Positions 36,196 through 60,579 are shown, counted from the stretch's first letter. The stretch: DNA of 64,000 nt from Microbotryum violaceum (GCA_001244265.2 CDLV01000008.1:558001-622000); one strand, 5' to 3'. Notes: generated by a model from the letters alone, not told the origin. Program-made: numbers and translations.

Positions 36196-36269
36196 AAAGG
36201 ATTAACCGCCTGCCGTTGTAGAATCGGACATGTTATTATACAGTGATCTGCCACCGGTGACCGGCTTGG

Positions 36270-36488
36270 CACCCCCGGGGGTACACAAGGCGCAAGCGGG
36301 AAAGCGCCTGTGTACTCCCGGGGGACCCCGCTTGCGCCTTGTGTACCCCGGGAGTGATCACACCCTGCGCGCCGAATGACTGTGTACCCCGGGAGTACAC
36401 AGCTTTGTCGACGGCACAGGCCGGGTCCCCGGGGTTACACTCTTGTCGCGCGCCGACTCTGTGTATGTGTACCCCCGGGAGTACACAG
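36270..36488. repeat. Cluster of palindromic TGTGTACCCCGGGRGTACACA motifs
   Basis: Variants at ~36271, 36309, 36340, 36381, 36423 and 36467; also at 33830, 35652 and 35695. Confidence 0.88.
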
Positions 36489-37017: not shown

Positions 37018-40000
37018 CTAGCCCATGGGCTCGTCGAGAATCTCGAGGTCGTCCGAGTCTTCACCCCTTGTCGAGCCTGACTCTCCGCCGCCCTCCCCGA
37101 GCTCAGCATCATCTTCTTCCTCGACCTCCTGCTCCGATAGTGAACCCAAAAGTTCTTCCATTCGTCTTTCATACACGTCATCACGGTCTCGCTCGGCCTG
37201 CTCCGCGGCTGGATCGGGGGTCAGGCCAAGTTCCCTTCGGAATGCATCGAGGTCGATGGGTGTGTGGCGCACGTCCACGGCAGAAGGACCTGATAAGCTG
37301 CGGCTCGACTCAGCGATGGGGCTCTGCATTTGAGTATTATTTAGCGTCGAAAGGCGGCGACCGAAATGACGTGGACTGCCGCGCGAACGGCGCGACACCT
37401 GTTTCGCCCGTCCGGCGAAAAGTCCCCCGATCAAACCAAATGCCGAGGGCCGCGATTCATGAACTGCGGGTGAACGCGTTCTAAGCCAGACAACCGAGAG
37501 ATCATCGCGTTCGGCGAGCCGATCCAGACGCTCTTTGAACGAAATCTGCCGGCGTTGAAGCACATGCCACACCGCAGTGCCAATCTCGCCCGCGCCGTCA
37601 GTTCCGAGAAGTTTCTTAGCCGCTTCGATCGTTTCTTCGGGAACTAATAGAAGGGGCGACGTAAGGTACAGCACCAACACAAAGAAAGGGTGTGTCCATC
37701 TCACCTCGGTCCTCTGCCCATGCCTGAGATACCCTAACAAAGCGAGTGTCCTCATCTTCGAGCCACGCAAGTAGTTGTCGAACCTCAGCTCCGATCCGGA
37801 GAATCTCTTCTTCCGCCCTGGCTTTGAGTAAAACCGCCTTGATCCCTTTCTGAACATCGGTATCAATCGCCCAAGGCGCAGTGTCGTATACGAAAAAACC
37901 GTCTTGCCAGAAAGCGTCCGTTGGCGACAGAGTCACAAGCGACTTAATTGTGGTAGCGAGCGGTAAGTTGTCCAGAATCTGGGCCGATTGCTCGGTCGCA
38001 GCATTTCGGTAATCCCCGACCGCTTTATTGTACATATCGATTGCCACTTTTACTTTCTTGCTGTGCGTCTGTGAGACGCTGACAAGCTTGCTGGCTTCGA
38101 CTTGACCGATTGTCGCGCCGCTTCGTCCCCGACCCATTGAGTCAATTCGTTCTTGACAGCATTGCAATTGGACCGTCGCTTTGTGCAATGCGCGAAGTTT
38201 GACTACGCAGTTGCACAAATGCTGGAAATCTAGGTATGTCATGGGACATCAAACATCAGGTGGCGATACTCATAAAGATAGGACGCGCGCCGCACCTGAA
38301 GCTGCAAGCTCCTTCGTGCGATCGTATTCTTGTTGGTAAGCTCTTAGCTGTTGCTGCAAGCGAGCCTTCGCTTCATCGGAAGCCATTGGATCAAATCTGA
38401 ACACACAATGCCAAGACACAGTGTCAATTTTACGCCCTCGTCCTCCAATGGGGTTTGACGCGCCGAACGTACAGCCTTTCTTCCACGTGGTGTAGCCTCT
38501 GTACAATTTTAAACAGCTCTAATCGCTCCTTGTCCTCGTTCTCCCGACATTGACCCGCCGTTGTAGCCGCTTGAGCAGCTCGTTGTAAATCCCATTGCGC
38601 GAGAAGGTCAGACTCGGACCATATTGCCGAAACGTCACTCAGATCAGTTTGTGCCCTTCCAAGCTGATCTTGAGCATTCGACAGTCGTCTGCGGAGCCAA
38701 CGGCCTAGAATGGACGATGAATGAAGGGACCGCACAATTAAGTAACGAACACGGCGTGAAAGTGTGGATGGCAGAGCATACCGAGGCTGTCAACACCGTT
38801 CTTGTTCATCAGGTCGATGCGACGCGAGATGTTGACGCGCCGGTGAGAAGCGCTCGCAGGACGATTGATCGGGATGAGCGATCGGAGCTGACTCCAAACG
38901 CGTTCGCATCCCTCCCCATCCGTCAACCCAAAGTGCTGAATCAGGCGCGGGTTGTACTCAAGCTGGCAGGGCCATTGATGAGCAAAAGCATGAAACACGC
39001 TCGTGGCAAACTTCAATCTCGGAAACAGATCGGGAAGGATACTTCTCTGCAGGCGATCGAAGTACAGTACAGGTCAGCGGCGCCCGAGGGCCAGAAATCT
39101 GAGAAACGACGGATCCGCCACTCTTGCTGACCGATTGCATGTAGCCGTCCAAATTACACGCAACATCATACAGCACTCCGAGTGTATCGTTGGAAGGGAG
39201 TTGGTTCGAAATATGTTGCAGCAGCGATAAGCCGTAGTAGCGCCTGCCTCATCAAAATCGAGCGTCAGGCCTTGTAAGCGGTTGAAAGAGGAGCTGAGCT
39301 GACGAACTTTTCGCCTGATTGATACAAATTGACCATCTTCAACGCGATATCGTGACGGCAAACACAGGCAACTAGGCCCGTATCGGACTTGCCCCGCGAG
39401 ATTTGTGTCGCACCGCCGTTGGCCGCTTTCCACGAATCGGCACAGGCCTTCAAGACGCGAGAGGAAGGGCGTCAGCGCGTTGAAAGGATCGCAGGGGGCG
39501 GCTCGGATCAGCGGACCTTTTCTGACTTCTTGCTGTCGCCACCATCACAGATCTCCTTCATCGAATCAAGCTCGCCTTCGCCGATGAAGAGGGCTGGCGT
39601 CGACTCCTGAAAATCGTATTTGGCTGAGGTGTCGCGAGAATGTTAGAAGTTGCCATCCAGAGCGACAAGATGCTGCACTTCGACTCTATGGTGGGCTTGA
39701 TTTAGACGCGTCGATCCGTAGCATGCTGGACACTTATCCGAGAGAGAACCCGCGACACCGAGGACGAGGTCGCCCAATTCTCGCTCGGATGTCGTGAGAG
39801 CCCGAAATTCGTCAAGGGCGCGCTGGAGTTGCTTTCGCAGCTCCTTGTCCTGCGCGAACGATGATAAATATCAGATAATGATCAATAGCAACCATGACAG
39901 GGGGTCGAGCTCACGAATTTATGCTGACTCAGGCCCGGCCGACCCCATCCAGTTTGCTCGTAGAAAATGTCGAGCCCGCGAGCTGCTCCATCAACAGGAA

Positions 40001-40930
40001 ACGGCGCGGTGCTCCACCAGGAGTCGAGGAATTGTACAAGTCGAAAGGTGAAGGCAGAGCGAGGAGCAGCTGCGGTCGATCCGATCAATCCGATCTGAGC
40101 AAGGTGCTCGGCGTACGTAAGGCATGGGCTATCGCTGCTGGATCTCGGACAAAAAGCGATCGGTACCTCGACCACTGCATCCATTCGACCTTGTCAGCGC
40201 GTTATTCGACACAGTGACCCAACTTGCCTTATTCACATACAGCTTATGAGGTCGTACACGTCAAGCAGTAATGTGAGGGGGCTCTCGCATGAACAAGGCG
40301 GCGGCACTTCGCTAGCGACCGAACCCTGGCACAGCTCCTCGTCCACGTCAATCAAGGGCCGTAGATGACCTTTGACCCCAGCGCAAAACGCGATATACTG
40401 GCGCAGAAGCGCTGGCCGTTCCAAGCGCGACGAGAGTCGTTGAACACGAACTGCTTGTACGTTTCTTGCTTCGACTGACCACGTGTGGCTGGTTCGAAAC
40501 TTTCGTCTTGGCGCAGATCAGCCAGTGATAATCGCTCGGCGGTTGCACTATAGTCAGGCGCGATTGGTATATGGGATGTTCGATCCGGAAAGTATGGGGC
40601 CGGACTAAAGTCGCGTTCATAGCCACCACCGTACTCGCTGTGGCGTTCATCATCCCAATCCATCCCACTCGGGTTGGCGGCTTCGTCGAAATCGGCCTGA
40701 ATCGGAGGGGCCATTGGAGGCCGAGGAGACGGCGAGCTAGCTTCGCCACGAGCATGTTCATCAAAGGTTCTTTGCTGAATTTGGCGCGCAGTGTACGTAA
40801 CCATGTGCCGGGTTCCGGGGATGTTGGTGCGGAGTTGAGGGTCCGAACGAAGGCGTCGGGGCTTATAGTCAGGATGTCCCTCGAAGTAGTCAGGTCGGAA
40901 CTTGAAGCGATTCCATTTATGCCTGCCCAT
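37018..40930 (-). pseudogene. KDZ transposase with an N-terminal CxC domain; premature stop and frameshift
   Basis: Motifs CPACYG, LVALDGNF, GLVACVCRHD, LYDVAC, SVFHAFAHQWPCQLEYNPR and GLTDGEGCERVWS are diagnostic KDZ transposase motifs. The CxC region has PCSC...FC...GLIGSTAAAPRSAF. TAA at 39643-39645 follows DGNF, and a frameshift lies near 40420. Confidence 0.9.
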
Positions 40931-41020
40931 TGTCTGATGCAAATTCGAGAATGTATTACTGTGTGTTACAATAGTTGGTGCTCGTCTTAGAACTGAGGCG
41001 GGTCTGATTTGGCGCTGAGC

Positions 41021-41851
41021 GGGGGCTCGACGCATAACGGGCCGGGCAGTGCTGGGTGGCGTGCGAGGTGCTCGCGCAGGACTTGCACGCCGGGGCGACG
41101 GGGCAATCCTTACGGACGTGAGCCGCGGAACGGCAGAAGACGCAGTGGCGCATGCCACCGGTGATCCTCAGTGGGATTCGCTCAGTGACACCGTCACGAG
41201 CAATAGAAAGTGAGGCAGGGGGCAAAACATCTACATCCTTAAGGGAAAGGATAAAGTCGTACACCCCAGAGATGTGTTTCGTCTTTCCAATGTATTGGAT
41301 GCGACGACGGAGGACCGTGCCGTAAGCAGCGATCTGCTCATCGAATAGGCAGAGGCCCTCGGGGTCGGAGAAAAAGCCCGTAAGGGTGCATTGTACAACA
41401 CCTCCTCTAGTAGAGCTGTACAGCTTCTCGACTTTGCACAGAGTCTTGCCAACAGTGAGGCCGTTGGCCACCAGGGTGTCGAGATCGGCGGCCTTGGGAA
41501 AGCGGAGGCCGCGCTGACCCTTGATGACGCATGGCATTGCGCCGGTAAGGCCAGGGTAGTATTTGTCAAGCGCGAGGAGGACTTGCTCGACCGAGGTTGA
41601 GGGTGGGGTGTTGATGATGACACAATTCTCGATGTTGTGCATCAGTGGATGGGCGGCGACGGCAGTCGAGGCGTTGGCGGTGGCGTTTCCGTGCTTCGCA
41701 GCGGAGCGGGCGCCGACCGCGGCGGAGTATGATTTGGTGGTGGTGGCGGGGGCTTGGCCGGGAGGATCGGGAGGGTCAGGGCGAAGAGGTGGTATAGCAG
41801 CATGGCTGGCGTTGTTGGTGTTGTTGTTGTTGTCCATCCAATAGGAGTTTC
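41021..41851 (-). mobile_element. 5' half of an L1-clade LINE (5' end plus ORF1 with two CCHC knuckles), broken at a C5 run
   Basis: Matches 55389-56231 apart from a 12-bp Asn-repeat difference. Contains CVFCRSAAHVRKDC and CKSCASTSHATQHC. Confidence 0.95.
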
Positions 41852-42247
41852 TTCGTTACGTCGGTGTGGTTTGGGAGCGCGTGCAGCCAAAAGATAGATT
41901 AGTACCGAATAGAAAAGTCGATCGGGTTCGATCCCATTGAAAACTCTGCCGGACCAGTCGACGACTAGAAATGTCTAGAGTGATGCTCCATTATCAAGAC
42001 CTTCCAAAGACAATATCCCCCATCGGTACTTTGCAGCATGACACATCAACTTTGCTCGGTGCTACCCATTTCAGGACACGTAGGACCCGCGCGCCGACCC
42101 CCCCCGGCGCGCGGATCCGATTCGGGTACCCATTGGGCCCGGAGAAGCTGGAGAAGCAGCCTTTCGGTTTCTACTCCATTCCTGCTCCGCGACCGTCTTG
42201 GTTACAGTCCACGGGGTTCGCTCCTCGCTCAGAGTGCAGCGCGGATC

Positions 42248-44279
42248 ATGGCGTCGACGGCTCTTCGGATACCTGTCCTACGCGTTGGAAGTCGGCCTTG
42301 CTCGTGCCCACAATCGGTGCTCGGACAGCAGCCGACGCTCGGGACGTGCCGGAGCAGCCTGGCGGTCCAGCACCACCCCTTTCACCACCGGGCAGCGACC
42401 CCCCAGCTCGCTCGTTCGACCCCGACCCGCGTTGTAGGGTTTACCAAGAATCCGAGCGCTTCGGCTTCTATTCGACGGCACCTCTCAGCATTCCCTCCCA
42501 CCAAACCGGCGCACGTCCAGGGCCCGACCGCGGCCTACGATCATGAAGCCTCGACGGGCTTGATCCAGGATGACCCGCACCAACGCTCGATCGTCGCGCT
42601 CCTGCAGGACATGTACAACCGACTCGAGGCGTACAGGCCACCGACGATCCCACCTCTGCCGCCACCACGCAAGCCGTCGCTGTTGACGCGCATCTCGCGC
42701 TCAAGGTTCTTTGCGACGATGGAGGACGAGCTGCACCAGGCCAACACGGCGACGATCCCTATGCCGCCCGCCCCACCCCGCTTGCCGAAGGGCTTGTACC
42801 TCTTTGGCTCGGTCGGGTGCGGTAAGTCGTTTCTGATGGACCTGTTTTACGCGCACCTGCCGCCCAAGTACGAACACTCGAAACGTAGGGTTCATTTCCA
42901 CGCCTTTATGGTCGACGTCCATCGCCGCGGGCACAAGATCAAGCAGGAAAAGGGCGAGGCCCAGGATTGGATCCATCTCGCAGCTCGCGACATTGCCAAG
43001 GAGACGACCGTGCTTTGTTTCGACGAGTTCCAGGTGCGCGCGAGTCTATCTCGAAAGCCGACCTCTCGTAGGAGAATCAACAACTGACATTTTCCTTCGT
43101 TTCAATCGGGCTCCGACAGGTCACAGATATTGCCGACGCCATGATCCTGCGGCGGCTGATGGAATCGCTGAATGCGTACGGTGTGGTCACAGTCATGACC
43201 TCCAAGTGCGTTTTGGTAGGAGACTATGCGAGGGAAGAGAGCGTCAGCACGCGGGAGCGGTCGAACTGATCGCTGGCGGTGCTCTCTCCCCTCTGTGCCC
43301 AGTCGAACCCCCGATGACCTGTACAAGAATGGGATTCAACGCGAGCAGTTCATACCTTGCATCGAATTGATCAAGTCCTCCTTTGTGGTCAAGTGTCTCG
43401 ACTCGGAGATTGGTAAGTCGCCGTCATCCTCTAGCCCTCGTAATCGTGATCCTCGCTCGCTGACATGCGCTCCTGACCCTGGTCGACGACAGACTACCGC
43501 AAAGTGCCTCGCGCCTTGTCCAAAGTCTACTTTACGCCCATTGACGACGCCCATCGCCTCGAGATCAACAAGCTGTTCGACAGCCTGACCTCGAACGAGC
43601 CCGTGACCTCGGACCGCAAGCTGACGGTCTGGGGCCGACCTATCATCGTACCCGAATCGACGTCATCGGTCGCCAAGTTTGGCTTTAACGACCTGTGCGG
43701 CCAGGCCTTATCGGCATCCGACTATCTGGAGATCACCAAGACGTTTCAGACGATCTTCTTGACCGACGTACCCCAGTTGGGGTTGGACACCAAGGACCAG
43801 GCGCGCCGATTTATCTTATTCATCGACGCGGCCTACGAAGCCAAGGTGGGCATCTCGGTCTTGCCCTTCCTCCGTAGTTCCGGATGCAGGATGCGATGTA
43901 CTGAAGCAGTTCTTTCTGTTCGATTATTTGATGCAGACCAAATTGTTTATTCTGTCCGAAGTGCCGATCGCGACGGTCTTTTCGGATCAAAAGGGGAAGC
44001 GCGCCACCGATGAAATCTCGGACCACCAGCGCGCGCTCATGGACGAGCAGGGCTTGTCAGCCGATGTCGTCGGCGCGAGTTCGATTTTCACGGGCGACGA
44101 GGAGGTGTTTTCTTTCGCGCGGGCTGTGGTGAGTTTGAAAAGACAGTACCGTCAAAGCTTGGTCTCGTCCGGCGATCGACAGCTGACGCGACGCAATACC
44201 CCGTTGCCTACCCGCGCAGAGCCGAATTGCGGAAATGGGGGGTGTACAGTGGGCTCGCATCAGCAAGATCTCGAAGTGA
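42248..44279 (+). CDS. AFG1: AFG1/LACE1-like mitochondrial AAA ATPase
   Basis: PKGLYLFGSVGCGKS (Walker A), RRVHFHAFM, LCFDEFQ|VTDIADAMIL (Walker B), LYKNGIQR and QARRFILFIDAAYE. Spliced. Confidence 0.94.
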
Positions 44280-44544
44280 ATCCGGTCGAGCCGTGCAACG
44301 TAGATCATTCCATGTTGTAAAAAAAACATCACGGTGACCCGTGATCGATCGGCGAAGAGTTGAGAGGGTGAGCTCTTTTAGTAATACTCTGCGAATGCGC
44401 GGTCACCAGCCCTCATGGCCTCATTAGCGCCCGCTAGTGCCCGCCTTGCTCGCCGTATGAATGCTTGATTCGCACCCGTTCCGACCACATACACACACCG
44501 CCTCACACCCGCAACCCCTCTACTCTACCAGCACCACCCTCAAC

Positions 44545-45801
44545 ATGAGCTGTACGTACCTTTGGGCCTGCGTTTGGTCATCGGCGTAGTGTCGAGCCTG
44601 TCTGGGCCCGTTGCTGACTCCGCGTTGACCTCCACCTACTCACCTACTCTCCCTCTCCCTCTCTTGCACACCACAGACAACGGCGTCGGCTTGTCGACCC
44701 CACGTGGAACAGGCACGAACGGCCACATCCAACGCAACTGGTCCCACCTGCGAGCCCGCGACCCTCTGCCCCGCGTGACGGCTCCGGGGCCTTCTCATCG
44801 TCGACTTCGTTCGGCGGCGCTTCGACCGGACTCGCCTCGCGTGCGCCCGATGCGGGCATCCTCGATCACGAACGTCGGCGCAGGGTCGAGGTGCAATGCC
44901 TCGAAGTCCAAGTTCGGCTCGAGGACCAGGAAGCGCCGGTGCTGAGCGAGCAGGAGATCGAGCAACAGGTTGACGCGCTAAGGCAACGCCTGTTGGTGCA
45001 GAGCCAGGAAGCGCAAGGGAAGGAGAGAAAGGGCCTGATCCAGCCCACGAACGACACGAATTGGCGCAGGCCAAGGCTGTTGCGGATGAAAAGTTGCGCA
45101 AGGCGTTGGGGATCAGCAAGGACCATGTGGAGGGGAGGGCGTTCGACCGCGTCGAGCAGGAGCGGTTGAAGGAGGCGCGCAAGGCCGAGTGGGAACGCAA
45201 GGAGGAGGACAAGCGCTCCCGGCAAGAAGAGCGAGTCAAGCACCAGCAAGAACTTGAGAGGCTCAAACAGCAGCACGAGCACGAGAAGAGCCGACTCAAG
45301 AGGGACTATGAGAGGCGGGGTGGGGCACCGCCGGCGGGCACTTCGTCCGAGCTGCCGCTGTCGGCCGCAGCAAGGAGGTCGACCACGGATCGAAAGAGGT
45401 ACAGCCGGAGCCCCGAGGCTCTCGTGCGTCGTCGGAAGGACTCGAGATCGATCAGTCCCCCGCCTCGTCGACGCGGTCGCAGCCCTTCGCGTTCCCCGTC
45501 TCGCTCTCGCTCCCGCTCCCGCTCGTACTCGCGGTCCCGCTCCCCACCACCTCGTCGCGGTGCCGCCGCCGGCTCGTCTGCAAAGGGGAGAGGTCGCTCC
45601 CCGACTCGGTCCGTCTCCCGTTCCCGTTCGCCCATGTCGCGTTCGCCTTCTCCGAGGAGATCCAGGACGGCAGAGGCCATGGGGACCAAGCGGCCCCGAT
45701 CGCCGAGTCGGTCGCGCTCACGTTCGCCGAGGTCGAGGTCGGCTTCAATGTCGACGTCGTCGTCGTCGACGCCACCGAGGTCCAAGGCGAGGGATGACTG
45801 A
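44545..45801 (+). CDS. CWC21: Pre-mRNA splicing factor CWC21 (SRRM2 N-terminal homolog) with an RS tail
   Basis: MS|YNGVGLSTPRGTGTNGHIQRN, ILDHERRRRVEVQCLE and an RS-rich C-terminus. Two apparent single-base frameshifts (~44780-44845, ~45045) are probably assembly errors. Confidence 0.9.
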
Positions 45802-45987
45802 GCTCTTGCAAGGGGCGCGCATGTGTATGAATCAGATCATGGCGTATGAACGTTTAATGCACAGTGGGGAGGGATCGGTTCGTAGGATTCTTTTTTTTCT
45901 TCAGGGGGGCAATGCTTGATCAAGATGATATAGGATCCTCCCCATGTGGTGCCCGTGGGACCGCTCGCTCGGAATACTACAAAAGCT

Positions 45988-47232
45988 TTATTGCTTCAAC
46001 AACTGCTCGATCGTCGTCCGCTTCTCGATCACATCCGCTACAGCGTTCTGCAGGGCGAGGTGAAATGGAGGGAGAGAGGAATTTCCGATTAGTTGCGCTC
46101 CGTGCAAGGTGCTACGAAGCCAATGTCAGATCCGGGCTGACCTTGACCTGCAAGAACTGCTCGAACGCGACGTAGGGTATCTTTTCCCGATCGCAATGCA
46201 CGGACAGGTCGTTCGTATGGCCCGGAACGATCTTGACGAACAAGAGGTCCGCCGCACGCGCAGCCGACAGATCCGAGACGCCGTCGCCGCAAAAGAAAAG
46301 GGTCGGCTTGTGCTCGAGATCGCGGTAAGGGGACGTCGCCCGCGACTTGTCGTGGCCAAAGCCCGATTCGGGGTGACGAAACTTGATGGTCCATTTGCCG
46401 TTGGGGAGGTACTCGACGTCGTTGGCGATAATGTCGATCTTGGCCGCGTCCTCTTTGCCGACGAGATTTTCCATGATGGCGCGGATGATGGGGACCATGC
46501 CGGACGAGACGATGACGACGGGGACGTCATGGGCCTTACACCATTCGAAGAAGGATTTGAAGCCGGCATCGAGCTTGATCCTGTTGCGAAGGTACTCGCG
46601 CGTCTCGTCAAAGGTCTTGTTAGCCGCGACCGAGTCGATCATTTCTCGGAACGCGTCCCTGCACGCCAAAATAAAAAATTGGGAGGACGACATCGTGATC
46701 AGCACAAAGCCCTGCCCTAACGGACCATGCAGATCCCAAGGTTTGACTGACCTAAAGTTCCTGGTGCCGTTGAGAACCTCGAGGTTGATCGCGCGTCGTT
46801 TCTCGAGTCCACAGCCGAGCTGTGGAAAGACGAATTGATCTCGGCCGTCAGCGCTTCAGCACCGGTCCTAGTCGAGCCTGCGGAGTGGACGCCCGGGTGG
46901 ATTCTCCAGGATCTGTACTTACGTTGTCAGTGGCGGCATCGTTCGAGTCCTCACTGTAGACGAATGCAGACAGGATGTGAGCTACCTGCGGTGTGCGGTG
47001 GGTCACTCGGGAGCTGCCAAGTTGCTCTCGCGAACGAAGCCTGGAGGTACGCACGTGGTGATGGTGCCGTCAAAGTCGGTGAAGACGATGTAGGGCGCTT
47101 GAGCGTGGGGAAGCAAGGACGAGGATCTGGGGCAGGAGTGGAGTGGAGTAGGAGTCGGTGTCAGCGGAGTCCGGTTCGGGGTGTGGTGTGCAAATCGGCA
47201 CGTTCGCGTCGAAGGTGGAGGATGACGACATG
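45988..47232 (-). CDS. HAD-superfamily phosphatase (MtnX / yeast YNL010W-like)
   Basis: VFTDFDGTIT (motif I), IVSSGM, FGHDKS and FCGDGVSDLSAA. Spliced; the start codon is uncertain. Confidence 0.88.
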
Positions 47233-47651
47233 GGGTACTTTCCACACTCGATGCGACTTGAAGCGTCGAGAATCTTGAGCGTCCCCGTTGCGAGGCTCGT
47301 GATTGTTACTCACGCGCTCATTTCAAAAGATGCCAGAGATGAGCGAGTGCGGATGGGGTGACGGCAAGTGGTGGAGAGACGAAAAATCACCGAACGCGAA
47401 CGGGCTCATATTCGCGGTTATAGCGCGATCGTACGAGAACGTACGGGGCAGTACGGGGCGGTAGGGGCCTCCTGGGGCAGTGCTGTGTGAGGCCTGGGTC
47501 AGACAGTCGAGCCGGGCGGCGTGGCTTTCTCCTGGGGTCGCCGCTCGCGTCGCACTCGCGTCGCAACCTCAACCTCCGACTCGGCCCCTCCGATCTTTTG
47601 CACACCTTAACGGCCCTCTTGATTGAGTGGTCGTCCGCTGCGGCCCGGACC

Positions 47652-49845
47652 ATGTCGACGACGACGCCTTCCAAGCCGGCGCGAACGACGGCGGCGACGG
47701 CGGCCAGCGCCTTGTCGACGTCGGACACGGTCGTACTGCTGCTGCAACACATATGCCGTACCTTTTACGACACCGAGCAGTCCATCCTCGTCGACTCGAT
47801 CCGTCGCAAGTCCGTGTCAGTCATCGGTCGCGCTCCGAACCTTTCGCTTCTCCTGTCTTTCCCCACTTGGGTCCCGTCGTGTTCCCATTCTTGCCAGCGT
47901 GGACTGACCTTTGCTGCTGTCTCGCTGCATTTGTTCCCTCCAGACTCAGTATCAGGGACGATGAGCTGGCTGGGATGATGTTGATGCAGAAGAAGGACGT
48001 TGCCGCCGTCGCTAAGCGGCTGATTGAAGACCAACTCTTGTCGAGGTGAGCTTCAGAGGGCTGGAGATCATCCCAGAAAGCCCCACCACATGCATTCGCT
48101 ACAGCATTGCCTCTCCCGTCACCTCCCCACGCCTATCAGCTTCATGCGCCGGGAAGCGATCGAAGGCACGACCAAGAGCTTCACCTACAAGCGCAAGACC
48201 GAGGCGATGCTTAAGGGCCAAAAACTCGGCCAAGACGACGGCCCCAAGATGCAGAACAAGACCTACTACTACATCGACCCGTCCAAGACGACCGATAACA
48301 TCAAGTGGAGACTCTACCAGGTCAGAAAGGTTTTGGACGACCAGGACAGGAATGTGCGTACTCGTCGGTCGAGGACAACATTTGGCGGTGCCAGGGGGTA
48401 AAACCCTGACTTTTGTTACTTTCGTTCGCTCGCTCTCTCTTTCCGTGTCACGCCTCCCCCTGCAGGAGCTCGACGCACAAGGCTACTTCTGCCCGCTGTG
48501 CAAGGCCGAGTACACCCACCTCGACGCCGGCGGGTTGCTCGATTTCGCTCGCAACGTCTTGGCGTGCTCGATCTGCGGTACCGAGGTCGTCGACAAGGAG
48601 ACAATCGTCGTGTCCAAGAGCGCTCACGGGAACGTGCAGAAATTTATCGAGCAGACCAAGACCGTGAGCGAGCTGCTGAGGAGCATAGAAGAAGGTGTCT
48701 TGCCGAGGTCAGTCTTCTGGCAGCTTACTCGTGGTGGGTTCCTTTCAAAGTAGACGGTCACCGAGCCCTGATCACTCGTCATGGTCGCCTCGTTCTTCAC
48801 GGTCCCATAGGTTCGACATTGAAGAGTGGTTGGCCGCGAAGGACGCCGATAAGGCTCGCAACGTTACCCACGGCTCCGGTGACAGCCACCGGCTCGCTAA
48901 CGTGAACGTCCAGATCGCCGGCGACGAAGACGAAGAGATAGAGCGCTTGAAGCGCGAGGCTGAAAAGGAGGAAAAGCGACAGCAGAACCAGTTACCAACC
49001 TGGATCGCCAACTCGACCGTCACGGTCGAGGCGAGAGAGGCACCGGTTTACCATCCTGCGCAGTCGGATGACATGAAACCTCGGCTCGGGCTCGATGCAG
49101 CATTGTCGGCGGCAGCGGAAGAAGGCCAGCCGACGCCCACGACGGCAGCAACTGTGGGCGCGGGTGTCGAGGGAGAGTCACATGCAGGGCAGGACCCAGA
49201 AGAAGACGATCTCGACGCGTACTATGCCCGCATGGTCGCTAACAATGTACCGCCACCAGCAGCGACGACCACGAGTGTCGAGCGATCGCCCCTCTTCTCG
49301 CCGCTCGCGACGCCCGCGGCGCTGGAAGGATCTGCGACCCCCGTCGCCGCGACCGACTCTCCGCTCCCGCACGCAGTCAAACGAGCTCGTGAAGACACCG
49401 ATGGTTCCAACATCGCCGATCGCAGTAAAAAGTTCAGGGTCGAAGATGTCGTGAAGGGAGATGCGGATGCGGGCAGAACTGACGATAAAAGTGGAGGTGG
49501 AGGTGACGTTGCTGGTGGCGACGATCACGAGGATGACGACGACGACGATGACTTTGACGAGGTCGAGGACCCTAACCCGCTCATCACCGTCGGCGAACTC
49601 CAGATCGCGTTCGACCAGATCACCGAGGCACACACGGAGGCGATGGTAAGTTCTCAAGCACTGGCTGGGGAATACATGACTTTTGAACCTGACTGACCTC
49701 GTCCCGCGCGGCCGTTTCTCACCAATAAGACGCCGGAGGAATACACGGCAAGTCGAAAGAGCAACCGCTTACTTTCGCAAGTACTGACACCGCGCTTTTG
49801 TACCCTTCTTAGATCTATTTTGACCACTATAGTCGACTCGGTTGA
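47652..49845 (+). CDS. TFA1: Transcription initiation factor TFIIE alpha subunit
   Basis: Winged helix (YYYID...DNIKWRL), zinc ribbon GYFCPLC...CSICGTE, QQNQLPTW and an acidic C-terminus ending M|TPEEYT|IYFDHYSRLG*. Confidence 0.9.
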
Positions 49846-50020
49846 ATTCAGTCACTTTTTCGGCACCTGTTGTAACACAGAGCAGTTCTGCATCGACGGA
49901 CCCATCTGCGAGGCTTGGGAACTCTGCACAGAAACTTGACTTGACTCAATCGTGCTGTGCGATCCACTCGCGAACAAGATGTACTGGCCCATGATGATCG
50001 AAAACGAACGAAATCCCGGA

Positions 50021-50234
50021 CCGCGGCCCCAGAGCGCCCTTACTCCCGTCACCGTCGCGTTCCGTACATCCGATGCGGCACTCGATCACGTCCATCATCC
50101 CTTCCGCTCCGACCGCCAAGCGCACTCGACCCACTCCATCAAATCCAGATCCAAGGCGTGGTATCGGTCGTCGTAGGCGAGAGATGGCCGTGCGCAGGTA
50201 AGCGAGCACACACAAACAGGACATTCACACACAC

Positions 50235-50287
<53 letters not shown>

Positions 50288-50518
50288 GCGCGCGCGCACA
50301 CAACACACGTTCGAAGCAGGGAGGTCCGAACGAAGAGCTACAGATGTGTAGCAACGGGCGTCGAGTTCCAAGTCGCGGTCAGGCAATCAATCACGCGGGC
50401 TCGACGATGGAAGGGAGTCGCAAACAATCCGTAAGAGCCGTGAGTGCAGGCAGGAGCAAAGCGTAGCAGAGCCGTAGCGCCGCCAGCATGCGCCAGCAGG
50501 CTCCAGCAGGCTCCAACA
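50021..50518. repeat. Inverted copy of the 3585-4074 repeat with a (CA)n microsatellite
   Basis: Direct comparison with 3585-4074. Confidence 0.95.
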
Positions 50519-50762
50519 CGCTCCAGCAGGCTTCAGCAAGCGGGGTGCGGCTGTCCTGCGCCTGGGCCAAGCCTGGGGCGGGTCTAGGAATAGAAATCGA
50601 ATTGGCTCAATAACTGAAAATCGCTCTGCAAGTGCTTCTTGCGCTCCACAGCGTTGGTTGCCTCAGCGTTGGTTGCCTCCAAAAAAAAAACAAAAAAAAA
50701 AAGAAATCGAACACGCAGCGCTGCTCCTTTCAAGGCGACTCTGTGGCCCCCGACTTCTTTTT

Positions 50763-53700
50763 GTTTATTTGATAGACTTCATTAACAGCATAATTATATT
50801 GATGCCTAGAAATCTTCGGAAAAGTCGGAGGGAATGCTGTTACGCACACTGACAGAAGCCAGTAGTGTAAGACTCATTGACCCTGAACCAGGATCAACCA
50901 TACCCACTAAAACCCCCTTTGGTGTCTTACAGAGACACTAGGCGACCCTTGGACTCCTGGATAGAGGCTCGAAGCCCCTCGAACTCCGTTTCGGTGATCG
51001 GTTCCAAAAGATCCGACGAGAATCGACGACGGCGACACAGCTTCCAGATCGAGTGAAAGAAGAGGACTCGTAGTTCGACAAGTCGACGTTCCGAGCGAGA
51101 CACGACCGGGCATACAAAGTCCACAAAGACTGGGTGGGGGGTCGGGGACAGAGCAGACCAGAGGCGCCGGGCAAATGGGCAGCCGACCGCGAGGTGAACC
51201 AGGCACTCGGGTGCTTCCGAGAGGCACATCACACAGGAGGTAGATCGATTGTTGGGATGTGGGCTGGTTGGGGAGGTGACTTGGCTTCCCGGATGGAGGG
51301 ACCCCAGGGAGAGAAGGTGGCCGATATCCTCGGCGTCCGAGTGAACCCGGCGAACCTTGCGCAAAGCCTTCCACCAAGCGTTCCAGCGTTGCTCAGGCAA
51401 ATCGAATACCTTCTGGTGTCCCTTGGGGAAGATAAGGGGGAAGATGAAGACTTGGTGGCGTTTGGACGCGTTCACAAACGAAGACGGGGTCATCACCTCG
51501 CCATCGGGCCCTCGAAAAAGCGTCGGGTTTACCGAGAGTTGTATTCCGTGGCCCGCTGGGAGATAGAGTACGTGCGTCGCCCATTGCTCGAGGTTCTGGC
51601 TCTGGAGAGTTCCGGGGGATTGAGCGTGGTCACCGACGCCCAGGCTTCGAAGTATCGGACCCAACGAGCAGGAAGAAGTTTTGTCGTTTTTCTCACCACA
51701 TGGTCCCACTTTGGGGAGGGTGGCAAAATTGTGCCCACCAGATCCAAATCCAAGGGCAACGATGCTGGTTGGGGCCGGTCTGGACAAGGTGAAAGGGGTT
51801 GGTTCGTTTGGTGCCTGGAGGCGGATGCGGATGTCGAAGAGGTGGCGTGTGAAGCAGCCGTCCGGGGCCCGGAGCTGGAAGACCCACTTCGCGTGATCGA
51901 TTGCTAGACGCCGAGGCATATCAATCAAACCGAAGCCGCCGTGATCAAGAGGGGCGCAGAGGTGCGACCGGGAGACCTTCGGACGTCGCTGAGTACCATC
52001 CGAAGCTCGACCGTGAATGGCGAGCATGGCGGCCTCCTCGATCTCCTTGACAACGCTCTTGGGGGCGGGAAGGAATCGGCTGTAGTACAAGATCTTTGTG
52101 TAGCAGTAGATGTTGATGATCGAACACTTGGCTGCATATGGGAGATCGTACATCGGAATTGAGCGTATCCGAGCGATGGTCGAGGCCTTGACATCTTCCC
52201 AGCCCGCATCCTCGGCGATCTCCACCCCGACCTGAATACCAAGGTAGCGAAACTGCGAATCGCTGAGACGCCAGGTCCCGAGATCTGGGGCGATAGACCG
52301 ATCCCGAAAAGCTCCAAGGGGGTAGAGGAAAGATTTGACGTTGCTGAGCTTGCTGGCACTTGCCCGTTCGTAAAGCTCAATCGCCCGATTGAGGTGGTCG
52401 AGGTCCGAGAGGTTGTGGAGTGCGCAGCAAGCGTCGTCGGCAAAAAGGAGTTCGCGAACGTTTTGGAGGCCCGCAATATCGATGCCCTTGACTCTCAATC
52501 GAATCTGACAGGCAAAACCTTCGATCGCCAGGACGAAGAGAGACGGAGCCAAAGGATCACCTTGCCGAACGCCCGACAAGATGTCGAAAGTGGCAGAGAG
52601 CCAACCGTTGAGGAAGACCGATGCAGATTGGTTGGTGTAGGTCGCTCGGTACCATTGGCGGGCTTTGGGGCCGAGGCCAACGGCGCAGAGGACTGCATCA
52701 AGGTACGGGTGGGAAAGACGATCGTAAGCCTTTTCAAAGTCCATCACCGCTAGCATGCCAGAGAGCCCGGAAGTCCAGGGTCCATGAGACATTGGACTTC
52801 AGCGATGTTCGTGCCGATCCAACGGTTCGGAACAAAGCCACGTTGGGTTGGGCCGATCAGGGACTCGAGCAAGGGAGCGAGGCGCTGGTTGTGGGCTTGC
52901 GAGATGATGCGCTCGTCCGCATTGATGAGCGATATGGGGCGTTTGTTCGAAAGCTGATCCCTCTCGCCGCGTTTGTGGATGAGATGGATGTGGGCGGTGT
53001 TGCGGGGAAGAGGTCCAGGCTGACGGGCCTCGGTGGGGATCGAGTTGATGACGTCTCGAAGAATCGGGCCAGTGGCCGGCCACGTAGCGCGATAAAACTC
53101 AACCGGGAGGCCGTCAGGCCCTGGCGAAGAGTTCGACTTACACGCCGCTTGAGCCTTTGTCATCTCCTCCAACGGGTACGCTTCTTCGAGCTTGAGTGAG
53201 TCCGCGGGGAGAGGCGAGTTGAAGCGAGGCCGTCGATGATCGCCTTCAGGGCCGCGTCATCGATGGGGCGGTCCTCATAGACCCGCTCGAAGTAGTCGCT
53301 GGCCGCTCCAAGCATCGAATCAGGGTCGGAATCAGGGTCGGAATGAACAACATCGTTGACCGTGAGCGAAGAGATCAGGTCGGATGCTCGCACTTTGCGC
53401 AGGCGGATGAAGATGGAAGAGGGACCCGCCAGAGATGGGTCGAGGCGGGACCGCAGGGCCGCGCCGTAGCGCGAGTGGTCAGCCCTCTCTTGCTCCGACC
53501 CGCCACGACGGAATCGAGCGAAAGTCCGGGCCAGAGCCTGCAGCTCGGGCAGCAGGCGGTGTTTGGTGGACGTCCAAGCTGCTGGTGGATCGTTGGGCGT
53601 CTGGAGGAGGGCTTTGTTGTAAAGGGTGCGGACAATGGAGGTGAGGTACTCGCAGGTCGCGTCGCCCTCGATCACGTACAAACCCAGCTTGAATTTGCCC

Positions 53701-55092
53701 GGACCGATGTCGATTGCGCCCGGCACTTGGAACCGTGCCACAACCATTGAGTGCGTCGATTTGAGGACAGGAGCCCAAATTTTGTGATCATGGAAGAGGT
53801 CGACCCAATCAGGCGAGACATAGATGCGGTCAAGGCGACGGCACGTGCCGGGCGCTGAGCGATTCGTCGTGGCTCGTCCTTTGGGATGATGGAGCCGATA
53901 GGCGTCGAAAAGATTGTTGGCCGTGGCAAGGTCGCGCATCTCCTGACCCCCATAATTCGTTCCGTTTTGGTTCTCCGAATCGAGGGGCTGGGACTCAACA
54001 CAATTCCAGTCCCCCCGACTAGGAGCGCAGGCGGCGAGGGTTCGTCACGTACAACTTGTCGGAGGGCGGTGCTGAGGTGTGAGAGGAAGCGTTTTTTGTC
54101 TGGCTTGTCGGAGGAAGGCGCGTATATTGGTACAACCCGGACTTTTGAATCACCCACACAAAAGGTGGCGTCGGTGACTCGGTCCGGGAAAGAGAAAGAG
54201 GCACGAAGAGTGTTTGGAGGCGACTCGGGATCAAAAGTAATGACCACGGAGTCGCTCTTCCAAAGTATGGCAGTGTTGTTGAAAGGAGTGAAAAGAGCGG
54301 AGAGCTTTAAGTCTTGGCACTCCTGAGTCCACTGGGCCACCCTTTCGGGGGAAGGTTGGCCAGTTTCGCTCAGGAGAAAGACGTCGGCGTTATGGGAGCG
54401 GAGATTGGAGAAAAGAGAGGCACGCTTACGGTCTTCATTGATTGACTGCACGTTGGCAGCAACAAAAGACACGTTTGGGATTTTAGTTGTGCTCATCATC
54501 TTGGTCCATAGCGTCTTCCACGTCCTTAGGAGGTGCTTCTTGGTCTTCGGCTTCTTCGTCGGCCTCGTCGTCGGTGTCGGCGTCATCGGGTCGGGCTTTG
54601 GGCGCGGCTGAGGGCAACGGCGTGGGCGAAGACGGCTCGGGCTCGGCTCGGAGGCTTCGAGGGCAGGCGCAGTGGGAGGGGCTTCACGAGTGGCTGGCTT
54701 GGAGAGGGCGGCAATCGACTTGGATCGAGTTATGATCGACTTTGGCGTGGCCGGAGGAGGGCTTGGGGATGGAGAGGTGGTCTCTGAGCTGGGGGACTCG
54801 GAGGATTTTTCAACGAGGGAGTAGGCAATTCCCTGATTGGAGGCAGGCTGGGGGCAGGAGGAGTGGCAGTTTTGCAAGGGAAATTGAAGGAGAACTCGGG
54901 GCGGGCATTCTTCGACAGAGAATCGGGCTGAGCTCTGTTGGGCAGATCTTCAGTCTGGGCTGCCAGATCCTGTTCCACTCGACGTTTTTTGGTCATGCGG
55001 TCGTGGGCGGAGGCCGGGGAGATCGACTTGGACACGGCGGCGGGGGCGGCGGTGGTAGCGGTGGAGGCTTGCGGGGCACGTGACGTGGGGGG
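50763..55092 (-). mobile_element. 3' part of an L1-clade LINE (ORF1 tail, APE endonuclease, RT, zinc-finger C-terminus, 3' UTR), starting at a C6 run
   Basis: Near-identical reverse complement of 56237-60570. Contains NVQSIN, LSET, RLDRIY, DFEKAYD, GVRQGDPLAP and FADD. Confidence 0.97.
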
Positions 55093-55162
55093 AGGTTTGA
55101 AGAGACAGCTCTGCGGGCGACTGCACAAGTACTCCCTAACAATAGGTCAATCTCATTAGCAA

Positions 55163-55301
55163 GTTGCCCTAGTCCTCGGGCCATCCAGCAACCCGGGTTG
55201 CATGGGGGGGCAACATGTATGGCTACGTCGCGCGGAAGCGAGGGTCGGAGGCGCGCGGCGTGCGCCACTTTTTAGCGTGCTTATATATATAGCCAGAGGT
55301 G
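55163..55301 (-). repeat. Right terminal inverted repeat of the KDZ element
   Basis: Reverse complement of 30374-30511. It is followed by CAC and then CTGGGCTTTC. Confidence 0.92.
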
Positions 55302-55388
55302 CACCTGGGCTTTCGGGGCTACCAACTAATTTTTCCTCTCCCCCTCTTCGGGGTGACTTAATTTTTGGATTTGGCCGACTTGAAAAAG

Positions 55389-58300
55389 GAAACTCCTATT
55401 GGATGGACAACAACAACAACACCAACAACAACACCAACAACGCCAGCCATGCTGCTATACCACCTCTTCGCCCTGACCCTCCCGATCCTCCCGGCCAAGC
55501 CCCCGCCACCACCACCAAATCATACTCCGCCGCGGTCGGCGCCCGCTCCGCTGCGAAGCACGGAAACGCCACCGCCAACGCCTCGACTGCCGTCGCCGCC
55601 CATCCACTGATGCACAACATCGAGAATTGTGTCATCATCAACACCCCACCCTCAACCTCGGTCGAGCAAGTCCTCCTCGCGCTTGACAAATACTACCCTG
55701 GCCTTACCGGCGCAATGCCATGCGTCATCAAGGGTCAGCGCGGCCTCCGCTTTCCCAAGGCCGCCGATCTCGACACCCTGGTGGCCAACGGCCTCACTGT
55801 TGGCAAGACTCTGTGCAAAGTCGAGAAGCTGTACAGCTCTACTAGAGGAGGTGTTGTACAATGCACCCTTACGGGCTTTTTCTCCGACCCCGAGGGCCTC
55901 TGCCTATTCGATGAGCAGATCGCTGCTTACGGCACGGTCCTCCGTCGTCGCATCCAATACATTGGAAAGACGAAACACATCTCTGGGGTGTACGACTTTA
56001 TCCTTTCCCTTAAGGATGTAGATGTTTTGCCCCCTGCCTCACTTTCTATTGCTCGTGACGGTGTCACTGAGCGAATCCCACTGAGGATCACCGGTGGCAT
56101 GCGCCACTGCGTCTTCTGCCGTTCCGCGGCTCACGTCCGTAAGGATTGCCCCGTCGCCCCGGCGTGCAAGTCCTGCGCGAGCACCTCGCACGCCACCCAG
56201 CACTGCCCGGCCCGTTATGCGTCGAGCCCCCAGGGACCCCCCACGTCACGTGCCCCGCAAGCCTCCACCGCTACCACCGCCGCCCCCGCCGCCGTGTCCA
56301 AGTCGATCTCCCCGGCCTCCGCCCACGACCGCATGACCAAAAAACGTCGAGTGGAACAGGATCTGGCAGCCCAGACTGAAGATCTGCCCAACAGAGCTCA
56401 GCCCGATTCTCTGTCGAAGAATGCCCGCCCCGAGTTCTCCTTCAATTTCCCTTGCAAAACTGCCACTCCTCCTGCCCCCAGCCTGCCTCCAATCAGGGAA
56501 TTGCCTACTCCCTCGTTGAAAAATCCTCCGAGTCCCCCAGCTCAGAGACCACCTCTCCATCCCCAAGCCCTCCTCCGGCCACGCCAAAGTCGATCATAAC
56601 TCGATCCAAGTCGATTGCCGCCCTCTCCAAGCCAGCCACTCGTGAAGCCCCTCCCACTGCGCCTGCCCTCGAAGCCTCCGAGCCGAGCCCGAGCCGTCTT
56701 CGCCCACGCCGTTGCCCTCAGCCGCGCCCAAAGCCCGACCCGATGACGCCGACACCGACGACGAGGCCGACGAAGAAGCCGAAGACCAAGAAGCACCTCC
56801 TAAGGACGTGGAAGACGCTATGGACCAAGATGATGAGCACAACTAAAATCCCAAACGTGTCTTTTGTTGCTGCCAACGTGCAGTCAATCAATGAAGACCG
56901 TAAGCGTGCCTCTCTTTTCTCCAATCTCCGCTCCCATAACGCCGACGTCTTTCTCCTGAGCGAAACTGGCCAACCTTCCCCCGAAAGGGTGGCCCAGTGG
57001 ACTCAGGAGTGCCAAGACTTAAAGCTCTCCGCTCTTTTCACTCCTTTCAACAACACTGCCATACTTTGGAAGAGCGACTCCGTGGTCATTACTTTTGATC
57101 CCGAGTCGCCTCCAAACACTCTTCGTGCCTCTTTCTCTTTCCCGGACCGAGTCACCGACGCCACCTTTTGTGTGGGTGATTCAAAAGTCCGGGTTGTACC
57201 AATATACGCGCCTTCCTCCGACAAGCCAGACAAAAAACGCTTCCTCTCACACCTCAGCACCGCCCTCCGACAAGTTGTACGTGACGAACCCTCGCCGCCT
57301 GCGCTCCTAGTCGGGGGGACTGGAATTGTGTTGAGTCCCAGCCCCTCGATTCGGAGAACCAAAACGGAACGAATTATGGGGGTCAGGAGATGCGCGACCT
57401 TGCCACGGCCAACAATCTTTTCGACGCCTATCGGCTCCATCATCCCAAAGGACGAGCCACGACGAATCGCTCAGCGCCCGGCACGTGCCGTCGCCTTGAC
57501 CGCATCTATGTCTCGCCTGATTGGGTCGACCTCTTCCATGATCACAAAATTTGGGCTCCTGTCCTCAAATCGACGCACTCAATGGTTGTGGCACGGTTCC
57601 AAGTGCCGGGCGCAATCGACATCGGTCCGGGCAAATTCAAGCTGGGTTTGTACGTGATCGAGGGCGACGCGACCTGCGAGTACCTCACCTCCATTGTCCG
57701 CACCCTTTACAACAAAGCCCTCCTCCAGACGCCCAACGATCCACCAGCAGCTTGGACGTCCACCAAACACCGCCTGCTGCCCGAGCTGCAGGCTCTGGCC
57801 CGGACTTTCGCTCGATTCCGTCGTGGCGGGTCGGAGCAAGAGAGGGCTGACCACTCGCGCTACGGCGCGGCCCTGCGGTCCCGCCTCGACCCATCTCTGG
57901 CGGGTCCCTCTTCCATCTTCATCCGCCTGCGCAAAGTGCGAGCATCCGACCTGATCTCTTCGCTCACGGTCAACGATGTTGTTCATTCCGACCCTGATTC
58001 CGACCCTGATTCGATGCTTGGAGCGGCCAGCGACTACTTCGAGCGGGTCTATGAGGACCGCCCCATCGATGACGCGGCCCTGAAGGCGATCATCGACGGC
58101 CTCGCTTCAACTCGCCTCTCCCCGCGGACTCACTCAAGCTCGAAGAAGCGTACCCGTTGGAGGAGATGACAAAGGCTCAAGCGGCGTGTAAGTCGAACTC
58201 TTCGCCAGGGCCTGACGGCCTCCCGGTTGAGTTTTATCGCGCTACGTGGCCGGCCACTGGCCCGATTCTTCGAGACGTCATCAACTCGATCCCCACCGAG

Positions 58301-60579
58301 GCCCGTCAGCCTGGACCTCTTCCCCGCAACACCGCCCACATCCATCTCATCCACAAACGCGGCGAGAGGGATCAGCTTTCGAACAAACGCCCCATATCGC
58401 TCATCAATGCGGACGAGCGCATCATCTCGCAAGCCCACAACCAGCGCCTCGCTCCCTTGCTCGAGTCCCTGATCGGCCCAACCCAACGTGGCTTTGTTCC
58501 GAACCGTTGGATCGGCACGAACATCGCTGAAGTCCAATGTCTCATGGACCCTGGACTTCCGGGCTCTCTGGCATGCTAGCGGTGATGGACTTTGAAAAGG
58601 CTTACGATCGTCTTTCCCACCCGTACCTTGATGCAGTCCTCTGCGCCGTTGGCCTCGGCCCCAAAGCCCGCCAATGGTACCGAGCGACCTACACCAACCA
58701 ATCTGCATCGGTCTTCCTCAACGGTTGGCTCTCTGCCACTTTCGACATCTTGTCGGGCGTTCGGCAAGGTGATCCTTTGGCTCCGTCTCTCTTCGTCCTG
58801 GCGATCGAAGGTTTTGCCTGTCAGATTCGATTGAGAGTCAAGGGCATCGATATTGCGGGCCTCCAAAACGTTCGCGAACTCCTTTTTGCCGACGACGCTT
58901 GCTGCGCACTCCACAACCTCTCGGACCTCGACCACCTCAATCGGGCGATTGAGCTTTACGAACGGGCAAGTGCCAGCAAGCTCAGCAACGTCAAATCTTT
59001 CCTCTACCCCTTGGAGCTTTTCGGGATCGGTCTATCGCCCCAGATCTCGGGACCTGGCGTCTCAGCGATTCGCAGTTTCGCTACCTTGGTATTCAGGTCG
59101 GGGTGGAGATCGCCGAGGATGCGGGCTGGGAAGATGTCAAGGCCTCGACCATCGCTCGGATACGCTCAATTCCGATGTACGATCTCCCATATGCAGCCAA
59201 GTGTTCGATCATCAACATCTACTGCTACACAAAGATCTTGTACTACAGCCGATTCCTTCCCGCCCCCAAGAGCGTTGTCAAGGAGATCGAGGAGGCCGCC
59301 ATGCTCGCCATTCACGGTCGAGCTTCGGATGGTACTCAGCGACGTCCGAAGGTCTCCCGGTCGCACCTCTGCGCCCCTCTTGATCACGGCGGCTTCGGTT
59401 TGATTGATATGCCTCGGCGTCTAGCAATCGATCACGCGAAGTGGGTCTTCCAGCTCCGGGCCCCGGACGGCTGCTTCACACGCCACCTCTTCGACATCCG
59501 CATCCGCCTCCAGGCACCAAACGAACCAACCCCTTTCACCTTGTCCAGACCGGCCCCCAACCAGCATCGTTGCCCTTGGATTTGGATCTGGTGGGCACAA
59601 TTTTGCCACCCTCCCCCAAAGTGGGACCATGTGGTGAGAAAAACGACAAAACTTCTTCCTGCTCGTTGGGTCCGATACTTCGAAGCCTGGGCGTCGGTGA
59701 CCACGCTCAATCCCCCGGAACTCTCCAAGAGTCAGAACCTCGAGCAATGGGCGACGCACGTACTCTATCTTCCAGCGGGCCACGGAATACAACTCTCGGT
59801 AAACCCGACGCTTTTTCGAGGGCCCGATGGCGAGGTGATGACCCCGTCTTCGTTTGTGAACGCGTCCAAACGCCACCAAGTCTTCATCTTCCCCCTTATC
59901 TTCCCCAAGGGACACCAGAAGGTATTCGATTTGCCTGAGCAACGCTGGAACGCTTGGTGGAAGGCTTTGCGCAAGGTTCGCCGGGTTCACTCGGACGCCG
60001 AGGATATCGGCCACCTTCTCTCCCTGGGGTCCCTCCATCCGGGAAGCCAAGTCACCTCCCCAACCAGCCCACATCCCAACAATCGATCTACCTCCTGTGT
60101 GATGTGCCTCTCGGAAGCACCCGAGTGCCTGGTTCACCTCGCGGTCGGCTGCCCATTTGCCCGGCGCCTCTGGTCTGCTCTGTCCCCGACCCCCCACCCA
60201 GTCTTTGTGGACTTTGTATGCCCGGTCGTGTCTCGCTCGGAACGTCGACTTGTCGAACTACGAGTCCTCTTCTTTCACTCGATCTGGAAGCTGTGTCGCC
60301 GTCGTCGATTCTCGTCGGATCTTTTGGAACCGATCACCGAAACGGAGTTCGAGGGGCTTCGAGCCTCTATCCAGGAGTCCAAGGGTCGCCTAGTGTCTCT
60401 GTAAGACACCAAAGGGGGTTTTAGTGGGTATGGTTGATCCTGGTTCAGGGTCAATGAGTCTTACACTACTGGCTTCTGTCAGTGTGCGTAACAGCATTCC
60501 CTCCGACTTTTCCGAAGATTTCTAGGCATCAATATAATTATGCTGTTAATGAAGTCTACCAAATAAATAAATAAATAAA
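55389..60579 (+). mobile_element. Full-length L1-clade non-LTR retrotransposon (ORF1 from 55403; ORF2 ~56833-60404), frameshifted as assembled
   Basis: 14-nt leader GAAACTCCTATTGG-ATG. ORF1 has CCHC knuckles. ORF2 has APE, RT (FADD) and a CxxC...H...C finger. Ends in a (TAAA)n tail. Confidence 0.97.

Follow-up and report, generated by a model that had tools for sequence, protein, structure and literature searches.

We analysed a 64,000-nucleotide stretch of the Microbotryum violaceum genome (CDLV01000008.1:558001–622000; the window), in which a 14-kb insert (41021–55092) interrupts a KDZ (Kyakuja–Dileera–Zisupton) element, one of a group of large transposons. The insert holds a block of ordinary fungal genes (~9 kb), an intergenic segment that we call E, and the two halves of one long interspersed nuclear element (LINE). 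Comparison with public sequencing runs shows that a single intergenic site, where E met the block, had received one full-length LINE, which is now broken at the motif AGGGA. Each LINE half abuts one side of a C6 run that other KDZ copies have unbroken, and the block and E meet at the ends that faced away from the LINE, making the 14-kb insert a circular permutation of E + LINE + block. As to mechanism, our tentative preference (a probability of about 35%) is that the KDZ element suffered a break in its C-run, that copying primed at C-run microhomology repaired it from the LINE next to the block, and that the native copy was then lost.

To judge by its sequence, the broken element is a LINE, that is, a non-LTR (long terminal repeat) retrotransposon. 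A full copy (5,183 nt, plus strand, 55389–60571; delimited by repeat search and self-BLAST of the window) has a 398-residue ORF1 (first open reading frame, 55403–56599) with two CCHC knuckles, a match to RVT_1 at 58531–59403 (49.9 bits, cut-off 29.6, E = 4e-13) with a second piece at 58073–58579, the reverse transcriptase being placed near 58350–59000, and a (TAAA)n tail. Exo_endo_phos is recovered below threshold only, as two pieces in successive frames (E = 0.012 and 0.015); the copy is frameshifted in this assembly, its frames being broken partly by assembly indels. The insert carries the element in two parts that share one orientation (minus strand). The 5′ part, from ORF1 to a break directly past the knuckles (41021–41851), is the reverse complement of 55389–56231, the first 843 nt of the full copy, and departs from it only in the length of a (CAA)n run, by 12 nt. 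The 3′ part (50760–55092; end of ORF1, endonuclease-like region, reverse transcriptase and its own tail) is the reverse complement of 56237–60571, with three substitutions (full-copy positions 59732, 59771 and 60559) and four one-base indels; past the matched region the A-rich tails of the two copies diverge. Across the break the full copy reads GAGCCCCC-AGGGA-CCCCCCACGTC (56222–56247), with AGGGA at 56232–56236 between two C-runs. Read on the minus strand, the left piece stops at ...GTCGAGCCCCC and CCCCCCACGTC opens the right piece, AGGGA alone being lost between the halves. With complementary end points this exact, 5 nt apart, chance is impossible.

The interrupted KDZ element measures 24,928 nt with the insert and 10,856 nt once this is subtracted. 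Its left part (30374–41020, minus strand) contains a terminal inverted repeat (TIR) and the transposase gene, with a KDZ domain on the minus strand at 38741–39073 (80.6 bits, cut-off 26.6, E = 2e-22), a CxC1 match at 39885–40193 (23.1 bits, under the cut-off of 26.9) and an ATG near 40931; the right end, which is the element's 5′ region, occupies 55093–55301 (minus strand). The 139-nt TIRs (30374–30511 versus 55301–55163) are 94% identical. The target duplication CTGGGCTTTC lies at 30364–30373 and 55305–55314, the right-hand copy sitting between CAC and GGGG (55302–55318), and is present once in a paralogous segment near the left end of the window (3563–3572). On the minus strand ...TCTTCAAACCT precedes the insert and GCTCAGCGCCAAATC follows it, ~90 nt upstream of the ATG. 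A search of the window for other copies of the two KDZ flanks returned the known ones only. Three tandem units of ~190 nt (62–89% identity) lie inside the element at 35713–36213.

The block is present in 20 of 21 listed public runs (six studies). Contigs of four of these (X14, X15, run X1 and X19) were compared over 40000–55400, part of the contig rows being listed; X19 behaves as an RNA run, with spliced joints. We write run X1 for the sequencing run and segment X1 for the paralogue at 1529–3584. Depth shows KDZ to be multi-copy, at several times the single-copy level, and an uninterrupted form is found: the joint 41020 to 55087 (14,066 nt skipped, five ambiguous letters) occurs in two contigs of X15, two of run X1 and one of X19, the last with 116 nt on its shorter side. 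Other KDZ copies therefore read ...AAACCT-C6-GCTCAGCGCC. In the fourth run, X14, a diverged KDZ form appears as a loose end. Since X19 is RNA-like and covers the KDZ 5′ region in its uninterrupted form (40644–41020 plus 55087–55202) with a contig of high depth, some KDZ copies appear to be transcribed. The LINE is likewise confirmed in its canonical form, 55092 being joined to 41021 through TCCCT in X15, run X1 and X19 and through CCCT in X14. These results bear out part of the original prediction. It had described the LINE pieces as complementary halves lacking AGGGA, which alignment to the full copy makes exact (with the right piece starting at 50760), and it had placed both insert junctions within C-runs, where we find five G/C joining the 5′ part to KDZ on the left and six (55087–55092) joining the 3′ part on the right. 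Its claim that removing the insert joins the right-TIR region, through a C-run, to the ~90 nt upstream of the KDZ ATG agrees with the flanks, and the test it set beforehand, the form of intact KDZ copies, returned the predicted sequence with n = 6 in three of the four runs.

A LINE-free arrangement is seen in X14, a run ~3% divergent from the window. Its record 9 (13,211 nt, depth 27.5) consists of 50312–50756, a single T, 41874–50049 and then 4,455 more letters. In this single-copy contig E lies on the opposite side of the block and is joined to it, 50756 to 41874 with one letter between, without a LINE: this is the empty site of the split LINE. Because X14 joins E to the block LINE-free, both LINE halves come from one insertion at one site. 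The insert is thus a true circular permutation, as had been proposed, with E then block in X14, block then E in the window, and the LINE opened between. Other runs agree at the individual joints. A contig of X15 also leaves the window sequence at 41874, and contigs of run X1 and X19 extend 30 nt into the LINE 5′ end, beyond a 22-nt copy-specific leader (41852–41873, minus strand) that separates the LINE 5′ end from the block and is missing from the LINE-free joint of X14. An X19 contig spans 50759/50760, from E into the LINE 3′ end. The block–E joint is supported by run X1 (to 50050, which is 30 nt, or k−1, into a repeat beginning at 50021) and X15 (to 50036). Independent runs therefore support three of the five joints: LINE 5′ to block, E to LINE 3′, and block to E. 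The block itself is at single-copy (baseline) depth in all three DNA runs, with KDZ and LINE several-fold to tens-fold higher.

The same X14 joint bears on how the two LINEs are related. The original prediction derived the insert from an ancestor with the order KDZ, LINE, reversed block, LINE, the block lying between two direct LINEs beside KDZ, either through a LINE–LINE pop-out circle or through an inversion followed by a flip between inverted LINEs. On paper both routes produce the present sequence; AAAAAG stands in both the 5′ flank (55388) and the 3′ flank (50760), a 6-nt match that could be a target duplication, and the paralogue shows segment X followed by reversed E. However, stripped of its LINEs, that ancestor would have E next to the KDZ flank and the block running into 60572, and the joint 50756-T-41874 is impossible from it; X14 thus contradicts this ancestor. 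Nor does the full LINE look like a recombination partner. It is a simple insertion at GGGG/GTCCTG, its 3′ flank GTCCTG continuing its 5′ flank GGGG, and the same site is unbroken in the paralogue (3572–3582, 11 of 11 letters). The tails of the two full-length insertions also differ (CAAATAAACAAAAAG versus CAAATAAA(TAAA)3G). Together the X14 joint, the contiguous flanks in the paralogue and the differing tails indicate two independent LINE insertions. They contradict both recombination routes, which we now rate as very improbable. A third partner had gone without mention in that account, namely a 0.5-kb repeat (50021–50518) with an inverted copy at 3585–4074.

The wider family of LINE copies supplies some context for these insertions. 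Neither full-length insertion has a clear target duplication. Each is preceded by a copy-specific leader, that of the full LINE being 70 nt long (55319–55388, plus strand) and absent from the paralogous empty site; the final ~14 nt of the two leaders are alike. Among the window copies three distinct 3′ tails follow the common ...GAAGTCTAYCAAATAAA. At no fewer than eight LINE places (41246, 41322, 41325, 50804, 50852, 51562, 51955 and 54130) both window copies share one letter that is in no contig of X15, run X1 or X19, a hint that they are each other's closest relatives, with the caveat that contigs may lose rare variants. A 5′-truncated 3′ fragment (2136–2680, minus strand, 98% identity) has a 6-bp target duplication, GCTATC, and an old 3′-end relic in reverse orientation, ~75% identical to the young copies, lies at 63677–63977. 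In X15, a low-depth contig runs from the LINE 3′ end (50760) via TTGTTTTA to KDZ at 55120, 28 nt from the C-run; this further LINE insertion, in the same small region of a KDZ copy, suggests a preferred target. Scans of the window for tRNAs and Rfam families, in case E held a structured RNA or the LINE had a recognisable target, gave no match.

Segment E (50021–50759, plus strand) is intergenic, with an (AC)n run, and its first part is the repeat just mentioned. The inverted copy (3585–4074, minus strand) is 99.4% identical, with three substitutions in 498 nt and an 8-nt microsatellite difference. It abuts segment X1 (1529–3584, plus strand) at GTCC-TG-TTGG, with a 2-nt TG overlap (3582–3585), just upstream of a phosphatase gene. 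Segment X1 is an older paralogue of X2 (28856–30373, plus strand), the stretch that ends in the left KDZ target duplication. The two align over 1529–3576 at 89% and 96.5% identity, interrupted by the truncated LINE; the paralogue reads ...CTGGGCTTTCGGGGGTCCTG, with the KDZ target site and the full-LINE site unbroken and neither element present. The joint between segment X1 and E is young, since the E copies differ by 3 in 498 against 3.5–11% for the X1/X2 pair. This near-identical inverted copy ahead of the phosphatase gene points to the spot beside E and that gene, ~46 kb leftward, as the likely native place of the block. X14 agrees with the window as far as 50049 and the match to the paralogue begins at 50021, so that the two overlap by 29 nt where the block meets E. 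An ancestral order, in window orientation, of reversed block, LINE, reversed E, phosphatase region, X2 with KDZ, and full LINE fits these data. To reach the present order requires an exchange between the LINE at AGGGA and the KDZ C-run, a block–E joint within 50021–50049, and the young joint of segment X1 to E.

Under the preferred reading, the block would have had its native place next to E and the phosphatase gene, where the 0.5-kb E copy now abuts segment X1. A double-strand break in the KDZ C-run would leave two ends, which would prime on opposite sides of AGGGA, through C/G-run microhomology, and copy outward. Synthesis from the first end would cover the LINE 5′ part, the block and 29 nt at the start of E; from the second, the LINE 3′ part and E. 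The new strands would then anneal in the 50021–50049 overlap, giving the permuted insert and a second E copy, and the redundant native copy would be deleted between segment X1 and position 50518 of E. We prefer copying followed by deletion because it uses X14 as it is and explains both the young E duplicate and that duplicate's truncated microhomology joint to the old segment X1. The first 3.5 kb of the 3′ arm may in addition have been copied by fold-back from the nearby full LINE, which starts 296 bp from the KDZ/insert junction. The inverted LINE arms are separated by a 1,144-nt spacer bounded by G6 (55087–55092) and C6 (56237–56242), and all three arm substitutions lie in the distal 840 nt, with none in the proximal 3.5 kb or in the 5′ part. 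A fold-back start would explain both the spacer bounds and the distal-only differences; the placement of the substitutions fits a template switch but also a later gene conversion.

Several points weigh against this reading. Repair synthesis of ~14 kb outward, closed by a 29-nt anneal, is a demanding event, and in the compared runs we saw no strain with two block copies, the intermediate it predicts. That E and the phosphatase gene were native neighbours is deduced from this window alone. If the 4,455 X14 letters past 50049 are diverged E, then the block already had E at either end when the event took place, and a pair of plain reciprocal exchanges is enough. Those exchanges would start from segment X1, E, reversed block, LINE, E, Z (the genes at 4075–28855), X2 and KDZ. 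A ~42-kb inversion with breaks at the LINE AGGGA and the KDZ C-run, joined by C-run microhomology, would make the E copies inverted, and homologous recombination between them would flip the 45,946 bp of 4075–50020. All window junctions are reproduced in this way, the 99.4% identical inverted E copies bound exactly the segment 4075–50020, every step retains all genes including the single-copy block, and the identity of the LINE arms near the spacer would follow if these close inverted copies had later undergone gene conversion. Set against this, an E duplication beside segment X1 must already have existed; the 4,455 letters are not aligned to E and 50312–50756 is unique in X14, so that E is not seen on both sides; and a break 296 bp from another LINE is a coincidence unless the LINEs paired ectopically. 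We consider this pair of exchanges unlikely.

A third route runs through an extrachromosomal circle, and the three would yield the same sequence. Recombination between direct E copies would free the block and LINE as a circle and leave segment X1, E and Z as a scar at 1529–4074; the circle would then open at AGGGA and enter the KDZ C-run by microhomology. The gene order, circularly permuted relative to X14, is what a circle gives, a scar-like single E sits at the inferred native site (retaining 0.5 kb of E that is also present in the insert), and there is precedent in wine yeast, where permuted circle integrations are attributed to non-homologous joining (PMC3053389). Yet the same prior E duplication is required, which X14, with E seen on one side, does not display. 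The circle would also have carried, without a centromere, the sole copy of the block, including a probable TFIIE-alpha gene (a weak hit), and the junction expected of it is identical to the present block–E joint. We regard such an excursion as improbable.

Three other origins can be set aside. A single inversion fails on topology: the C-run junctions are of insertion type, and inverting 41021–55092 restores neither partner. A staggered-break inversion that created the E duplication predicts 50021–50049 twice at the block–E joint, where it is present once. An RNA-mediated origin, by a read-through transcript or by twin priming, is ruled out because the block keeps its introns and no tail stands at the outer insert ends. 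LINE-1 twin priming with 5′ inversion does resemble the present case in leaving two parts of one LINE in unexpected relative order, but here there is no tail at the outer ends, 9 kb of intron-containing genes lie between the parts, and the parts share one orientation, which excludes reverse transcription.

Assembly error needs separate consideration, since among the contig rows listed none spans 41020/41021 or 55092/55093 in the window form, which leaves the assembly as the basis of both C-run junctions. Homopolymer errors do occur in it: an added base is present in all four runs at 44768, 45043, 51602, 51770, 53205 and 54010. The window therefore has one-base deletions, the C-run lengths are soft, and some of the LINE and gene frameshifts are probably errors. 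One extra homopolymer base is also seen at 47463 in contigs of three or four runs. Could the assembler have made the C-run junctions, or set the orientation of the segment between the repeats? The systematic one-base deletions and the near-100% repeats of 4.3 kb and 0.5 kb at critical places speak for it, as does the lack of the two C-run junctions in the contig rows listed. Misjoins, on the other hand, fall inside long repeats rather than at reciprocal 5–6-nt runs that lose exactly AGGGA, and the LINE 5′ to block, E to LINE 3′ and block to E joints are backed by independent runs. We think an artefact quite improbable.

The block core (41874–50020) encodes an AFG1-like ATPase (plus strand), a cwf21-domain open reading frame (plus), a HAD hydrolase (minus) and a protein with weak TFIIE-alpha/zinc-ribbon hits (plus). 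Its introns are retained, as seen from X19 spliced joints with GT..AG or CT..AC ends. Spliced X19 contigs over 44219–47314 have CT..AC introns, which indicate a minus-strand transcript overlapping the plus-strand cwf21 frame. A metagenome scan with a 22-mer of the block's left edge returned a lone match (L001) that has only those 22 letters in common, a chance hit in an unrelated contig. Region Z (4075–28855) contains ordinary genes, among them those for a PP1-type phosphatase, a class II aminoacyl-tRNA synthetase, UQ_con, PCMT, Ysc84, DUF7729 and HECT_2 proteins. It also contains a short direct repeat (11913–12044 and 22912–23022; ~72–82% identity).

Set beside known systems, the event is a well-documented case of known processes, a transposable element-associated microhomology rearrangement, possibly by way of a circle, and not a new kind of system. 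The closest multigene parallel is a 17-kb segment in wine yeast with circularly permuted integrations via an extrachromosomal circle (Galeote et al. 2011, PMC3053389). In both cases a multigene segment is permuted and its breakpoints are joined without long homology. By comparison, the Microbotryum segment is single copy and of no foreign origin, was opened inside a LINE with its target inside a transposon, and has the circle as one of three fitting routes. Replication-based rearrangements (microhomology-mediated break-induced replication, fork stalling and template switching) and fold-back inverted duplications resemble the present case in the 2–6-nt microhomology junctions, the small templated duplication of E in inverted orientation, and the inverted arms with a short spacer bounded by complementary runs. 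Unlike these, the outcome here is net gene-balanced, with no terminal deletion or amplification seen, and the order of template switches is inferred. For the transposon, the nearest comparison is KDZ1 of Cryptococcus neoformans, which has 10,944 bp, an 8-bp target duplication and 236-bp TIRs (PMC11343200). Our element is alike in length (10,856 bp without the insert), KDZ domain, long TIRs, target duplication and multi-copy state. It differs from KDZ1 in its 139-nt TIRs and in a duplication of apparently 10 bp plus three extra letters, as well as in its host (G+C near 56%). In addition, host genes and LINE sequence, 14 kb in all, split this copy ~90 nt ahead of the ATG of its transposase.

With mobile elements of two kinds and runs of only 5–6 identical bases, single-copy housekeeping genes can be shifted by tens of kilobases without loss, and the window offers a natural, base-resolved example, with the sister-strain empty site and the scar-like paralogue both preserved in the data. 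It also shows that 'complementary' LINE halves need not imply LINE–LINE recombination. Of the consequences, the most interesting is the present position of four host genes between intact ends of a transposon. The KDZ family is known to be active in other fungi, and in M. violaceum the 24.9-kb composite keeps both TIRs and its target duplication while enclosing four single-copy host genes. The transposase of expressed KDZ copies could conceivably move these genes in trans, an outcome that we hold to be improbable. If this were true, the locus would show gene capture by a giant cut-and-paste transposon at its first step, achieved by microhomology-primed break repair and not by transposition.

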